DNA of 42,647 nt from Candidatus Uhrbacteria bacterium (GTDB lineage: Bacteria; Patescibacteriota; Patescibacteriia; UBA9934): NCBI GenBank assembly GCA_018664485.1, contig JABJOE010000004.1, positions 1-42,647 of the forward strand, written 5' to 3'. Below, one piece after another: positions 39,103 through 42,647 of the stretch. A model generated the notes under the pieces. It did no database searches, was not told the DNA's origin, and saw nothing but the letters and a program-made list of their open reading frames with translations. Position 1 is the first letter of the stretch. Each line of letters begins with the position of its first letter. Made by a program: the position numbers and the translations under genes.

Positions 39103-39966
39103 ATGAGAGTTGAAAAAGATAGAAAAAAACCAGAGCGCTCAACGATGCGCGCTCATTCAATGGCTATTCTCGGTGGCCTTGTTTTTATTTTGGGATTAAT
39201 GGTTTGGGTTTGGTATAGCGCGTACGTTCTGCACTCCTATGGCTCTTTCATGCGAACGACTTTGAAAGTCGTACCTCTCCCGGCAGCGTATGTTGTAGAT
39301 GAGGTTGTGTGGATGCGCGATTTGGCTGAACTTGCTTGGCTTGCGGAGACATCAGGATTGAGTGATCCGTATGATCGTGCGTATGAGACGTCGATTCGTC
39401 GTGCTTATATTCGCGGACTAGCAGATGAAGTTGGAGTTAGCGTCGACGATGAAGAATTGGATTCTTTTGTAGATGAAGTAGATGTTGAGATGCTGGAATC
39501 ACTTGGTTGGTCAAAACGTGATTACCAGAGATATTTGGCTAAGCCTCTAATTTTGGAGCAGACACTTGAAGATTCTTTGTATAATCTGACAGAATATCAG
39601 GATGGGGCATATGACGATATTTTGGCTTTGCAGTCTCAGTATGAAGATATTGGTATCGCTTTTCCTGATCTTGCATTGCAGTATTCGCAAGGTGCGAGCG
39701 CTGACGTGAGTGGTTGGCTTGGGTATCTTGAAGAGGACGAGTTACCCGCAGGATATAATGCTGTGTGGGATCTTGATGTAGGAGATACGGTGATTATTGA
39801 GCTTGAGCGCGAATTTGCACTTGTCAGAGTATATGATGTTACTTTCCTTGAGGTGAATAGGTTGAGCGTTGCTATACAGGAGATTTTGGTCAACAAACAG
39901 CCATTAAGTGAGATTCTAGACGATTATATCGGTGAAAATAGCCTATTTATAAGATTAGTAAGGTGA
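39103..39966 (+). CDS. PrsA/SurA-like foldase with degenerate parvulin domain
   Basis: N-terminal TM, PAAYV, ADEVGVSVDDEELD (SurA-N-like), FPDLALQYSQGASADVSGWLGY (PpiC-like). Confidence 0.7.
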   Translation: MRVEKDRKKPERSTMRAHSMAILGGLVFILGLMVWVWYSAYVLHSYGSFMRTTLKVVPLPAAYVVDEVVWMRDLAELAWLAETSGLSDPYDRAYETSIRRAYIRGLADEVGVSVDDEELDSFVDEVDVEMLESLGWSKRDYQRYLAKPLILEQTLEDSLYNLTEYQDGAYDDILALQSQYEDIGIAFPDLALQYSQGASADVSGWLGYLEEDELPAGYNAVWDLDVGDTVIIELEREFALVRVYDVTFLEVNRLSVAIQEILVNKQPLSEILDDYIGENSLFIRLVR

Positions 39967-39998
39967 GTTAGTTTTTAGGGTTCTGTCCCGTAGCTCCA

Positions 39999-40026
39999 CA
40001 AAAACACCAGTTTTCTGGTGTTTTTG
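39999..40026. terminator. Terminator closing the core operon before the cassette region
   Basis: CAAAAACACCAG-tttt-CTGGTGTTTTTG perfect 12-bp stem. Confidence 0.8.
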
Positions 40027-40041
40027 CATTTATACTACCTA

Positions 40042-40334
40042 TTTTCTATTTAACGGAGGGTTTTGACATAAATTACTTCCGAGGACATTCAGGGTTAATA
40101 TCCAGCAAGAATAATCTAATCGCAGAACTTTTGCTGTCTTTTCCCTAAACGTAGGGTTTATTCAATTAAAAGCACCTGAGGCTTGTTAAAGGATTTTCGG
40201 TATAAATAATGAATAACAAAGCCGCCTCCGTTGTATCTGCTTAATAATAACAACGGACGCCCGGTTTTGTCGTTATTTATGACGAATATATTCCTTTGAT
40301 AAACGAAGCGCTTTTTACTTGCAGAAACCCGTAG
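40042..40334 (+). repeat. Arm module 1: arm A1 (40042-40128), arm B1 (40137-40226), hairpin (40227-40257), complementary arm C1 (40258-40334)
   Basis: B1/C1 stems GGGTTT/AAACCC, AAAAGC/GCTTTT, TTGTTAAAGGA/TCCTTTGATAA, ATAAATAATGA/TCGTTATTTAT, ACAAAGCCG/CGGTTTTGT, TCCGTTGT/ACAACGGA. Confidence 0.85.
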
Positions 40335-40339
40335 TCCCC

Positions 40340-40368
40340 TTGACAAAAGAGTGATTTTCTGCTATTCT
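40340..40368 (+). promoter_or_regulatory. Consensus sigma70 promoter, cassette 1
   Basis: TTGACA-17 nt-TATTCT with extended TG; conserved in module 2. Confidence 0.85.
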
Positions 40369-40548
40369 GCGATGTTCGAATGTGGCTGAAAAAGTGCCAA
40401 CGAGCAACAGTTTAAAACCTGGGTAGGATTTAGTTCCTTCCCCAAAACCCCCGGCAGGCATTTGCCGGCCAAAATACGGGATGGCAATTTAGCATCCTAA
40501 ACGATCCGCCCACGGGCACAACCAGCCCCTAGGGCTACCGGAGACGAC

Positions 40549-41436
40549 ATGAACGCAACCCTGAAGACCCTGATCGGCCTGAGCCTGATCGGCCTGAGCC
40601 TGGTGGCCTGTAGCCCCCACGGCGACAATGACGACACCCTCGACACCGGCACCTCCGACGATGATGGTGAGCTGTCGAGCGCCGGCGAGGGCGACGATGG
40701 CGACGACGGTGGCGACACCGACGACACCGACGAGCCCGAGGTCGATGCGGACGGCGACGGCTTCACCGCCGACGAAGACTGCGACGACAGCGATGCTAGC
40801 ACCTACCCCGGCGCCCCCGAGCTCTGTGACGGCCTCGACAACGACTGCGATGACGTGGTCGACGAAGATGCCATCAACGACTCGACCTGGTACCGCGATA
40901 GTGATGGCGATGGGTACGGTGATCCGTCCATCTCGACCAGCGCCTGCGATGTCCCGAGCGGTTTCGTCGGCAACGGCGACGACTGCGACGACACCGACGC
41001 CAGTGCATACGACGACTGCACCAGTACGGACACCTGCACCATCGACATGGAGTGGGAGCCCGAAGGTGGCGCCAAGGACCTTCTCTCGCTCAGCTACGAG
41101 CTGGACTGCGATAGCAGCTACGAGGACTGGGATGCGACCGTCGCGGCCACCTCCAGCAGCTCGATTGCAGGCAGCTTCAGCCGTGAGATGAGCGAGGGCC
41201 AAGTCTGCATGTTGCGGATGAACGCCACGTCTCAGCTCGAGACCGAGAGCTACCGCGTCCGCTACGGCTGCGAGAGCACTTCGGGGTCCGAGTCCGGCGA
41301 CATCAACCAGGGTACCTGGAGTGTGACCGTCGACTGCGGAACGCCCATGGTCCAGACCATCAGCGTCAACAGCAAGGACAGCGGCACCGTCGACGGCTGC
41401 GAGACCGAAGTCATCCCGTTGGTTCTGGCCTTCTAG
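40549..41436 (+). CDS. GC-rich lipoprotein with Asp/Cys putative metal-binding (MopE-related) repeats
   Basis: Lipobox LVAC; DADGDGF...DCDDSDASTYPGAPELCDGLDNDCD and WYRDSDGDGYG; GGAGA SD; codons end mostly in C/G. Confidence 0.88.
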   Translation: MNATLKTLIGLSLIGLSLVACSPHGDNDDTLDTGTSDDDGELSSAGEGDDGDDGGDTDDTDEPEVDADGDGFTADEDCDDSDASTYPGAPELCDGLDNDCDDVVDEDAINDSTWYRDSDGDGYGDPSISTSACDVPSGFVGNGDDCDDTDASAYDDCTSTDTCTIDMEWEPEGGAKDLLSLSYELDCDSSYEDWDATVAATSSSSIAGSFSREMSEGQVCMLRMNATSQLETESYRVRYGCESTSGSESGDINQGTWSVTVDCGTPMVQTISVNSKDSGTVDGCETEVIPLVLAF

Positions 41437-41455
41437 CCTGAGCCTTCTCCCGTGA

Positions 41456-41502
41456 TAGGGGCCCGACAGAGTATGCCTTCTGGCTGCTCGACTGGGTCCC
41501 TA
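41456..41502 (+). terminator. 3' hairpin (possible terminator) after cassette gene 1
   Basis: TAGGGGCCC...GGGTCCCTA closing stem, weak T tail. Confidence 0.45.
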
Positions 41503-41558
41503 CATTTGCATCTAGATTATATTAGCTTCTTTATTCAATGCGCTTTTATGGCGTTTTT

Positions 41559-41851
41559 TGTCTTTTCTATCTAACGTAGGGTTATTTAATAAAAAAGCTT
41601 CAGAGGCTTGTTAAAGGTTATTTGGTAGAAATAATGAGTAACAAAACTGCCTCATTTCCTATCTAACAGAGGGTTTTAGCAAATAAATTGCTTCCGAGGA
41701 CGTTTAGGGCTAGATCCGGCAAGAATAGCCTGATCGCAAAATCGCCTCCGTTGTTACCAAAAAAGATACAACGGATGCCCGGTTTTGCAGGCTATGATGA
41801 CGGATTTGTCCCTAGATACCGCAGGCGCAATTTACTTTATAAAACCCGTAG
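41559..41851 (+). repeat. Arm module 2: arm B2 (41559-41653), arm A2 (41654-41746), hairpin (41747-41775), complementary arm C2 (41776-41851)
   Basis: A2/C2 stems GGGTTTTA/TAAAACCC, TAAATTGC/GCAATTTA, GTTTAGGG/CCCTAGAT, AGATCCG/CGGATTT, ATAGCCTG/CAGGCTAT, GCAAAATCG/CGGTTTTGC, TCCGTTGT/ACAACGGA. Confidence 0.85.
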
Positions 41852-41856
41852 CACCC

Positions 41857-41885
41857 TTGACAAAAGCCTCTTTTTCTGCTATTAT
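41857..41885 (+). promoter_or_regulatory. Consensus sigma70 promoter, cassette 2
   Basis: TTGACA-17 nt-TATTAT with extended TG. Confidence 0.85.
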
Positions 41886-42028
41886 TCGGTGTTCGTTTAA
41901 AAGTGAGGCAACTCACATAATAGACGAAATCATTAATAACACTCCCTAAGAGCGGGCACTTTGCCCATGATTCAGCTTGCTGGATCAACGGGCATTCTGC
42001 CCATTCACTGCGCAACCCTGGAGACCCC

Positions 42029-42647
42029 ATGACGCGCTTCCCGACCCTGACCACCCTTCTGGCCCTTGCGGTCGTCACTCTCAACACTGGCTGCTTCGAC
42101 GACGTCGAGCAGAAGATCTGCAAGGAGTATGACAGCTTCACCGCCGATCAGCAGGTTCTCCTGGACATGGCCGGAGTGGAGTCCGGCGAGTCCGCTTGCA
42201 TCGTCTATCACACCGACACTGAGTGCAACTACGTCTACGTGGTCGGCGAGATCGACGACGGAGGCTGGTACGGCGATAACGCCGACGAGTGCACCGGTGA
42301 GGACGAGCCGGAGGAGCCCACCGACGACGACAGCGACGGCTTCGACTCCGACGAGGACTGCGACGACGACGACGCGACCATCAACCCGGATGCAGAAGAG
42401 GTCTGCGACGGTGTCGACAATGACTGCGATGGCACTGTCGACGGCGAAGACGCCACCGATGCCGAGGTGTTCTACACCGACAGCGACGGCGACGGCTACT
42501 GCAGCACCGAGTTCGAGACGGTTTGTTCCGGAGACGAGGCTTCGACCTCCGTTTCCGAGACCGACTGTGACATCGACGGCGACGGCGACTTCGACGGCGA
42601 CGACGAGGACTGCGACGACGACGACGCAGACATCGATCTGACCTGTG
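42029..42647 (+). CDS. Second GC-rich MopE-related repeat lipoprotein, 3'-truncated by the window edge (absent from the ORF track)
   Basis: Manual translation from ATG 42029: MTRFPTLTTLLALAVVTLNTGCFDD...DDDSDGFDSDEDCDDDDATINPDAEEVCDGVDNDCDG...FYTDSDGDGYC...; GGAGA SD; no stop before the end. Confidence 0.88.
   Translation, partial: MTRFPTLTTLLALAVVTLNTGCFDDVEQKICKEYDSFTADQQVLLDMAGVESGESACIVYHTDTECNYVYVVGEIDDGGWYGDNADECTGEDEPEEPTDDDSDGFDSDEDCDDDDATINPDAEEVCDGVDNDCDGTVDGEDATDAEVFYTDSDGDGYCSTEFETVCSGDEASTSVSETDCDIDGDGDFDGDDEDCDDDDADIDLTC

Follow-up and report, generated by a model that had tools for sequence, protein, structure and literature searches.

How two GC-rich genes came to stand, and have remained, at the edge of an otherwise AT-rich contig is the question raised by the 3' end of JABJOE010000004.1 from a Candidatus Uhrbacteria bacterium (assembly GCA_018664485.1), which was analysed over its whole length of 42,647 nt (the window; contig C2 below). 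The genome (G000; 981,522 bp, 10 contigs) was rated 100% complete and 0.58% contaminated. The two genes, open reading frames ORF1 and ORF2, were predicted to encode lipoproteins with repeats of the MopE type. The original prediction held that they are written in a dialect different from that of their genome, which it placed correctly among the Patescibacteria (candidate phyla radiation, CPR), and that they had either been captured recently from a GC-rich donor or been kept tuned to the machinery of a GC-rich host. The dialect was confirmed for G+C at third codon positions (GC3), Shine-Dalgarno (SD) sites and non-native lipoboxes, and is broader than stated, as it marks a genome-wide class of genes. 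We consider it probable that ORF1 and ORF2 are native, long-resident genes for rapidly evolving surface lipoproteins with the MopE motif, and that their composition, foreign in appearance, is actively maintained.

The four G+C counts given with that prediction were exact on recount (45/60 and 40/60 in the pair, 23/60 and 28/60 in core genes). ORF1 has a GC of 0.643, and the part of ORF2 that lies in the window has 0.625, compared with 0.443 over positions 1-39966 and 0.424 and 0.438 in the two upstream intergenic stretches; in 150-nt windows, GC rises no more than some 130 nt away from the start codons and falls again some 60 nt or less from the ORF1 stop. The proximal leader of ORF1 (58% GC) and its 3' untranslated region (UTR; 64%) share the enrichment, while its promoter region has 42%; the proximal leader and 3' UTR of ORF2 were likewise measured as GC-rich. 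The GC3 of ORF1, 0.85, is at the top of 975 ORFs (median 0.417, standard deviation 0.09); these were listed by our own crude longest-ORF caller and not by a trained gene finder, so that counts of ORF classes are approximate. Amino acid composition was rejected as the cause of the high GC, as it predicts 0.48 for ORF1 (GC3 0.39) if the protein is written in core codon usage, against 0.64 observed; it accounts for about 4 GC points, and the remainder is codon choice. The share of GGC is 71% in ORF1, 12% in core genes and 3% in ribosomal protein genes, and those of ACC, GCC, GTC and CCC are 85, 61, 75 and 67% in ORF1 and 14, 13, 12 and 8% in core genes, respectively. A native dialect of highly expressed genes was also ruled out: the genes of ribosomal proteins and of the elongation factors EF-Tu and EF-G have a GC3 of 0.29-0.46, and ribosomal protein genes avoid GGC, GCC and CCC.

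The codon shift is specific to C. At four-fold degenerate sites C goes from 0.12 in other genes to 0.39 in the GC3-rich class described below and 0.69 in ORF1 and ORF2 together, whereas G goes from 0.20 to 0.26 and 0.14, respectively, and the shift is alike for genes on either DNA strand. Since only C rises, this argues against a strand-symmetric process acting alone, such as GC-biased gene conversion, by which frequent recombination in fast-evolving, partly repetitive genes would drive GC up. Conversion would fit the rise of GC at all codon positions and in the UTRs, as well as the fast evolution of the genes and the repeats in some of them. A symmetric process should, however, lift G and C alike; moreover, the non-repeat C-terminal half of ORF1 is as GC3-rich (0.88) as the repeats, and ORF1 and ORF2, just 72% identical over 138 nt, carry no sign of recent conversion between them, which makes this explanation improbable. 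The C-specific shift fits both codon habits inherited from GC-rich organisms and selection on the transcript, and does not separate the two.

The age of the pair follows from the comparison with a second genome of the same genus (G001; GC 52.8%, median GC3 0.57, against 0.42 in G000). The gene order murE-like, bPH, divIC, PPIase-like (peptidyl-prolyl isomerase), ORF1, ORF2, rpsB, tsf, gap is common to both. Protein identity is 48% for ORF1 and 59% for ORF2, compared with 66-88% for the flanking genes (tsf left out). At conserved residues the same codon is used with a frequency of 0.73 in ORF1 and 0.66 in ORF2, where 0.71 and 0.68 are expected, although under such strong codon bias this test of synonymous saturation has low power; flanking genes keep a small excess (e.g. 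0.41 against 0.35 expected). The GC3 of ORF1 and ORF2 is 0.85 and 0.85 in G000 and 0.96 and 0.98 in G001. The -35 box, the -10 box and the early leader of ORF1, including the motif GTGGCTGAAAAAGTG, are common to both species, and the ORF2 leader keeps its small GC hairpins and its SD site. Thus, from synteny, conserved leaders and divergence with a chance-level codon match, the pair dates back at least to the split of the species, and its compositional offset has not decayed. Because this offset is present in two species with chance-level synonymous matching, we infer active maintenance, which by the GC3 odds ratios would need a population-scaled force of about 2 in G000 to 3-3.5 in G001.

Three small GC hairpins or palindromes of the ORF2 leader (41940-42000; locus L032 12640-12720 in G001) are conserved in both species, and one palindrome is changed on both arms, reading CAGCTTGCTG in G000 and CCGGCTTGCCGG in G001. 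They could form a structure in the RNA or serve as a dyad to which a protein binds.

The recent capture of the genes from a GC-rich donor such as a member of the Myxococcota into native promoter sites is contradicted by this history, and we hold it to be very improbable. The codon usage, SD sites and lipoboxes do resemble those of GC-rich bacteria, and among 8,000 scored database proteins 3,896 match ORF1 at E <= 0.001, the named matches to the repeat region being mostly from Myxococcota, or from metagenome-assembled genomes (MAGs) of Deltaproteobacteria. These matches, however, span the repeat region only (18-51% of the query, 35-68% identity), and no donor was found for the C-terminal domains, which have no strong homologue outside the genus. 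For residues 160-295 of ORF1, a search of 5.8 billion clustered proteins (lengths 162-517 aa) returned only ORF1 itself. For the C-terminal domain of ORF2, 1.84 billion representatives gave one match below 1e-10, a protein of 391 aa with 68% identity, which agrees with the G001 orthologue in length and identity; within the order, 3 of 150 genomes have this domain, if G000 itself and one weak match are included.

MopE-motif matches were found in 29 of 31 related genomes, counting G000. A regular expression flagged a MopE ORF in six of eight loci of 12-20 kb from relatives, with a GC3 of 0.67-0.94 against local medians of 0.34-0.74; the remaining two loci were an unrelated stretch taken as control and a locus with ORFs that the expression missed. 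The family thus looks long resident in the order and GC3-rich wherever sampled. Homologues in relatives, next to a complete native lipoprotein pathway, had been named beforehand as what would speak against the original prediction if the homologues had drifted to host GC; both the homologues and the pathway exist, but the homologues have not ameliorated.

An artefact of assembly or binning is next to impossible, and the chimera that had been feared for this region was not found. The compositional boundaries are sharp and the contig ends inside ORF2, as a chimera might produce. However, the Logan contigs of three runs from three studies (X1, X2 and X5) bridge every junction with 0 differences over 39173-40638, 40180-41697, 40669-41828, 39943-40572 and 41498-42333; the source sample may be among these runs, and the contigs carry no information on depth, start or strand. 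Positions 39900-42647 are present in 20 marine or seawater metagenome runs from 18 studies. Run X8 gave many short pieces of 90-95% identity and 'joints' on repeat motifs, probably from other organisms. Both sides of the region are anchored in syntenic core genes, and a protein identical to ORF1 is encoded on a contig of 986,404 bp. The contig break itself is an exact overlap of 119 nt between the ends of C2 and C3 (42529-42647; C3:192574-192692, reverse strand), lying inside ORF2 repeat DNA. Therefore C2 and C3 are neighbours in the genome, and ORF2, completed on the reverse complement of C3 and followed there by rpsB, tsf and gap, has a full length of 359 aa.

The promoters of both genes are AT-rich and native-looking, as had been supposed, and each is preceded by an AT-rich repeat; these arms had been taken for native cassette sites into which the genes were inserted. 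The repeats at 40034-40378 and 41559-41895 resemble each other in pieces of 72-81% identity, and further copies in G000 make up a dispersed family of about 300 nt, 70-83% alike and without exception running up to the -35 box belonging to a strong promoter-like site. The presence of the repeat ahead of rnpB and ftsH as well shows that the arms are no cassette sites. It is, to judge from its copies, a dispersed element of the species lineage that abuts -35 boxes, and not a site of cassette recombination. For the same reason the repeat is not specific to cassettes of the integron type, and such a gene cassette was rejected as an explanation, though no search for an integrase was made. The partial copy on C1 lies upstream of a GC3-rich lipoprotein gene. 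In G001 no match to the repeat was found, and a tRNA-Thr(CGU) gene (L032 11245-11320) occupies the interval between the PPIase-like gene and the ORF1 orthologue where G000 (39967-40340) has the repeat; among the 37 tRNAs of the G000 assembly ARAGORN found no tRNA-Thr(CGU).

Within the repeat lie a hairpin that is conserved (CCGTTG...CAACGG) and a further promoter-like site (40183-40210 and 41608-41635). On C6, the RNase P RNA gene (rnpB; RF00010, 161.8 bits, C6:147556-148012) sits in an intergenic stretch of 950 nt behind a GC3-rich orphan ORF (C6:146327-147124).

The genome has its own means to lipidate such proteins. As had been proposed for checking, both enzymes of lipoprotein maturation were found, lgt (PF01790, 175.9 bits, C4:37868-38566) and lspA (PF01252, 67.7 bits, C5:46494-46877). 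A gene of a DsbA-like thioredoxin (C4:37093-37827) directly adjoins lgt, which is consistent with disulfide formation in exported cysteine-rich lipoproteins. The native lipoprotein candidates of low GC3 have a stereotyped lipobox, (L/V)-x-G-A-G-C, whereas the GC3-rich candidates end in VAC, SGC, TGC or AGC; all lipoboxes were called by eye and by regular expression, not by a trained predictor. Of the lipobox cysteines foreseen in both genes, that of ORF1 is canonical, the signal peptide having K6, a hydrophobic run and LVAC at residues 18-21, and that of ORF2 (LNTGC, Cys22) is borderline, position -3 being Asn; in the orthologues of G001 the sequences are AVAC and LATGC, respectively.

Initiation of translation differs in the same way. 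Native genes, such as those at 426-39966 of the window and at C7:66629-81970, show no enrichment of SD sites: SD-like 4-mers precede 14% of 692 ORFs and 18% of in-gene control positions, and the ribosomal protein genes listed, as well as those of EF-Tu and EF-G, have no SD-like core at a spacing of 4-9 nt. ORF1 and ORF2 both carry the predicted GGAGA, 4 nt ahead of ATG. The 3' end of 16S rRNA, which had also been proposed for checking, retains the CCUCC anti-SD in three relatives (G001, G004 and G024; ...CACCTCCTTTCTA / ...GGATCACCTCCTTTCTA), the 16S gene being unassembled in G000.

These observations bear on the second explanation offered earlier, that the genes are kept tuned to a GC-rich host, in or on which they would be expressed, and to its machinery for translation and for lipoproteins. 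The part about tuning stands in so far as the composition is apparently maintained, and SD sites, codon usage and lipoboxes all depart together from the native style, across species. Its other part, the machinery of a host, is unsupported: Lgt and LspA are native, relatives keep the anti-SD, and the promoters are the cell's own, with an upstream repeat common to rnpB and ftsH. We know of no route for the transfer of DNA or mRNA into a host, though no search for one was made, and consider expression of this kind scarcely credible.

ORF1 and ORF2 are not isolated cases. ORFs with a GC3 of at least 0.60 (the GC3-rich class) number 68 of 975 (about 7%) and are scattered singly over all contigs. 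A canonical SD 5-mer precedes the in-frame start in 34 of 66 of them and in 147 of 832 others; the corresponding figures for G001 are 31 of 51 and 158 of 863. Lipobox-like N-termini occur in 7/68 and 17/907, respectively. The GC of second codon positions (GC2) is raised too (0.449 vs 0.382), with Lys and Ile the most depleted amino acids and Thr, Pro, Cys and Asp among the enriched ones. Pfam assigned a family over the cut-off to none of 20 GC3-rich ORFs, compared with 17 of 20 random controls of low GC3. The extended promoter motif CCCGTAGnnCCCTTGACAAAAG, allowing up to 4 mismatches, occurs at 5 sites only, so that this exact promoter is not common to the whole class. A third GC-rich gene, a paralogue truncated by the contig end at C10:1-1000 (reverse strand), has a GGAGA SD site and a leader about 70% identical to that of ORF1, with the same CCGGCA...TGCCGG hairpin.

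Few of these genes are shared between the species: reciprocal best matches in G001 were found for 7 of the 68, against 568 of the 907 others. All seven orthologues are GC3-rich themselves (0.70-0.94), and their median identity is 47.5%, compared with 77.4% for the others. In many slots G001 carries a different GC3-rich ORF without detectable homology. The slot of ORF1 and ORF2, delimited by the PPIase-like gene and rpsB, has the look of a hot spot of variation: in other members of the family (loci L034, L036, L041, L044 and L097) the place before rpsB is empty or is taken by GC3-rich or by ordinary ORFs, and a tRNA-like sequence is frequent there across the family loci.

Such a turnover suggests another source of the dialect, namely recurrent replacement from a GC-rich accessory pool, carried by clade members or by a mobile element, which would refill the slots with copies too young to ameliorate. 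Besides the small number of reciprocal best matches, the non-homologous ORFs in G001 slots and the varying slot contents elsewhere, it would explain the tRNA gene in the G001 slot, the GC-richness of the entire transcribed block beyond its codons, and the GC3-rich lipoprotein C4:56489-57664, for which just two homologues were found (55% and 51% identity; one is encoded on a contig of 686 kb). Against it, ORF1 and ORF2 have orthologues in G001 whose promoters and leaders are conserved, and the two genes have diverged more than their flanks. In none of the relatives sampled do MopE genes have the GC3 of their genomic background, so that a source genome is not evident. None of 22 proteins tested matched PHROGs, and Pfam, as said, was equally silent. 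GC3-rich ORFs are not significantly nearer to tRNA, tmRNA or rnpB genes (10 of 64 within 1 kb, against 84 of 898; Mann-Whitney p = 0.11). Finally, the GC-richness of the pool itself would still need an explanation. We judge this account unlikely, though exchange of an accessory pool within the clade is the main alternative to selection as the maintaining force.

The proteins themselves are very acidic and rich in cysteine. ORF1 and ORF2 contain 74 and 70 Asp and Glu against 8 and 3 Lys and Arg, with 13 Cys in each stretch counted. The MopE-type repeats of the original prediction are there, two or three per protein (DxDxDG...CDD...PG...CDG.DNDCD), and matched PF11617 (Cu-binding_MopE, a putative metal-binding motif) over its cut-off of 27 bits, with 45.6 bits at residues 77-106 of ORF1 and 41 bits at residues 110-138 of ORF2. 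Most likely, these repeats would form disulfide-stapled modules that bind metal, probably Ca2+. The only solved relative is 2VOV, to residues 5-43 of which residues 65-102 of ORF1 could be aligned (E 9e-5). The C-terminal domains are lineage-specific and probably beta-sandwiches. Residues 163-291 of ORF1 were tentatively predicted to be all-beta, and its C-terminal domain had no usable match in Protein Atlas (0.77, template modelling (TM) score <= 0.52); that of ORF2 came nearest to the Ig, PKD-like and Ig_7 clusters at 0.91, which may serve as a lead only.

Taken together, ORF1 and ORF2 may be expressed as follows. Each gene would be transcribed separately from a strong native promoter of the sigma-70 type and translated via an SD site readable by the retained anti-SD; after export and processing by the native Lgt and LspA, the lipidated products might be exposed at the cell surface as rapidly evolving, metal-stabilised adhesin-like proteins. 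As for the force that maintains their composition, the leading guess is selection at the level of mRNA or translation, coupled to SD-dependent initiation.

Several points weigh against this reading. Display on the surface, the binding of metal and the role of adhesin are predictions from motifs. The solved structure covers 38 residues of ORF1, and the AlphaFold2 model of this protein, built with no alignment, is poor (mean pLDDT 47, pTM 0.35; predicted local distance difference test and predicted TM score). Among the runs listed for positions 39900-42647 there is no RNA run. The anti-SD is known from relatives and not from G000 itself, and the class statistics depend on the crude ORF caller. 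In the saturation test, the expected identity by itself is about 0.7. In G001 no recognisable counterpart of the C-terminal domain of ORF1 was seen (the BLAST alignment covers 147 residues), and the search for this domain found no other protein; therefore replacement instead of divergence could account for a part of the gene. The codons preferred in ORF1 also look anti-optimal for native translation, to judge from the codons avoided by ribosomal protein genes and from the tRNA set, in which tRNA-Ala(UGC) and tRNA-Pro(UGG) are the sole Ala and Pro tRNAs of the assembly. This argues against ordinary translational selection as the maintaining force.

The layout of the 3' end of the window, together with related features elsewhere in G000, is summarised in the table. 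The leader of ORF1 starts AT-rich and has its high GC from about 40419; the transcription start was placed from the -10 box alone, near 40375, and that of ORF2 is predicted near 41892. At the gathering score of Rfam no family besides tRNA-Lys was found in the window, and for the upstream repeats and leaders nothing credible appeared at E <= 1, the sole strong match being rnpB on the C6 locus.

Table. Features at the 3' end of the window (coordinates without contig name) and related features on other contigs of G000.
Feature	Coordinates	Strand	Evidence or remarks
Terminator-like hairpin closing the upstream PPIase-like gene (39103-39966)	39999..40026	+	12-pair stem, then T-rich tail
Copy 1 of the dispersed AT-rich repeat (~300 nt), abutting the -35 box	40034..40339	+	Matches 41559-41856 in pieces, 72-81% identity
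Promoter-like site P1	40340..40368	+	TTGACA, 17 nt, TATTCT, TG before -10; 10/12 consensus positions; predicted from sequence
Predicted 5' leader of ORF1 with GC hairpins	40369..40548	+	Sequence; GGAGA at 40540-40544
ORF1, predicted 295-aa lipoprotein precursor (Cys21)	40549..41436	+	Two DxDxDG/Cys-rich MopE-type repeats (66-158), orphan, putatively beta-rich C-terminal domain (~160-295)
Weak terminator-like hairpin and T-run after ORF1	41540..41560	+	Clearer counterpart in G001, recognised by eye
Copy 2 of the dispersed AT-rich repeat, modules reordered	41559..41856	+	Sequence comparison with copy 1
Promoter-like site P2	41857..41885	+	TTGACA, 17 nt, TATTAT, TG before -10; 11/12 consensus positions; conserved in G001
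Predicted 5' leader of ORF2 (~145 nt) with small GC hairpins	41886..42028	+	GGAGA at 42020-42024; aligned with the leader in G001, mean column identity 78%
Start of ORF2 (206 codons), probable precursor of a lipoprotein (Cys22)	42029..42647	+	MopE-type repeats; runs off the contig end
Repeat copy before rnpB	C6:147262-147526
Repeat copy before ftsH	C7:129047-129155
Partial repeat copy	C1:24685-24760
Examples of low-GC3 lipoprotein candidates with GAGC lipobox	C5:65914, C9:8243, C5:84012, C7:160442, C3:149042, C1:1385, C1:81607

Genes of odd composition are usually read as recent imports that fade into the style of their host. The oddity of ORF1 and ORF2 persists across two species and spans codons, amino acid usage, UTRs, SD sites and lipoboxes, and it marks a class of orphan genes enriched in lipoprotein-like signals. 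No description of such a two-dialect pattern was found in the literature searched, which did not cover subscription journals. If selection maintains the style, it would offer a handle, readable from sequence, on probable host-interaction proteins of uncultured CPR bacteria, and two modes of translation initiation would be partitioned in one small genome; if recurrent exchange maintains it, a hidden gene pool common to these cells would be indicated. A further and rather doubtful suggestion is that the GC-rich mRNA style, with its SD sites and C-ending codons, is a second, selectively maintained channel of expression for a fast-evolving, host-facing secretome. In that case translation might be gated apart from the SD-less AT-rich core, by the availability of the anti-SD or by the supply or modification of NNC-reading tRNAs, and the surface proteins might be made only in a particular state, e.g. 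attachment to a host. The dialect would then be a regulatory code and not the scar of gene transfer.

Among known systems, the amelioration of horizontally acquired genes is the usual model for genes of this kind. Its deviant GC3 and its scattered, mostly species-specific genes are also seen here, but in G000 the deviation persists in orthologues with a chance-level match of synonymous sites, is specific to C on the sense strand and is coupled to the use of SD sites. Bacteroidota, too, are poor in SD sites and retain the anti-SD. In PMC9297842, the anti-SD motif is reported in only 48% of Parcubacteria. Like those Parcubacteria subgroups that lack the anti-SD and other SD-poor lineages, G000 has native genes without SD sites, although its relatives keep CCUCC; unlike in other SD-poor lineages, a minority class of genes uses the canonical SD.

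At the level of the proteins, the closest relatives by motif are the PF11617 proteins abundant in Myxococcota and in MAGs of Deltaproteobacteria, with which both ORFs share the same Cys/Asp motif of 30 residues over the Pfam cut-off. They differ from typical members of this family in being small predicted lipoproteins of a 0.98-Mb CPR genome, in which the motif is joined to orphan C-terminal domains and the genes are GC3-rich on an AT-rich, SD-less background. The thrombospondin type-3 calcium-binding repeats, in which acidic loops of the DxDxDG type are interleaved with cysteines, resemble the repeats of ORF1 and ORF2 as well. MopE of Methylococcus capsulatus (2VOV, 2VOW and 2VOX; 'surface-associated protein') shares the N-terminal motif, and for ORF1 and ORF2 a location on the surface is likewise predicted. 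The rest of M. capsulatus MopE, including the copper site, which we take to lie outside the shared stretch, has no counterpart in ORF1, so that the likeness is one of a module and not of the whole protein.

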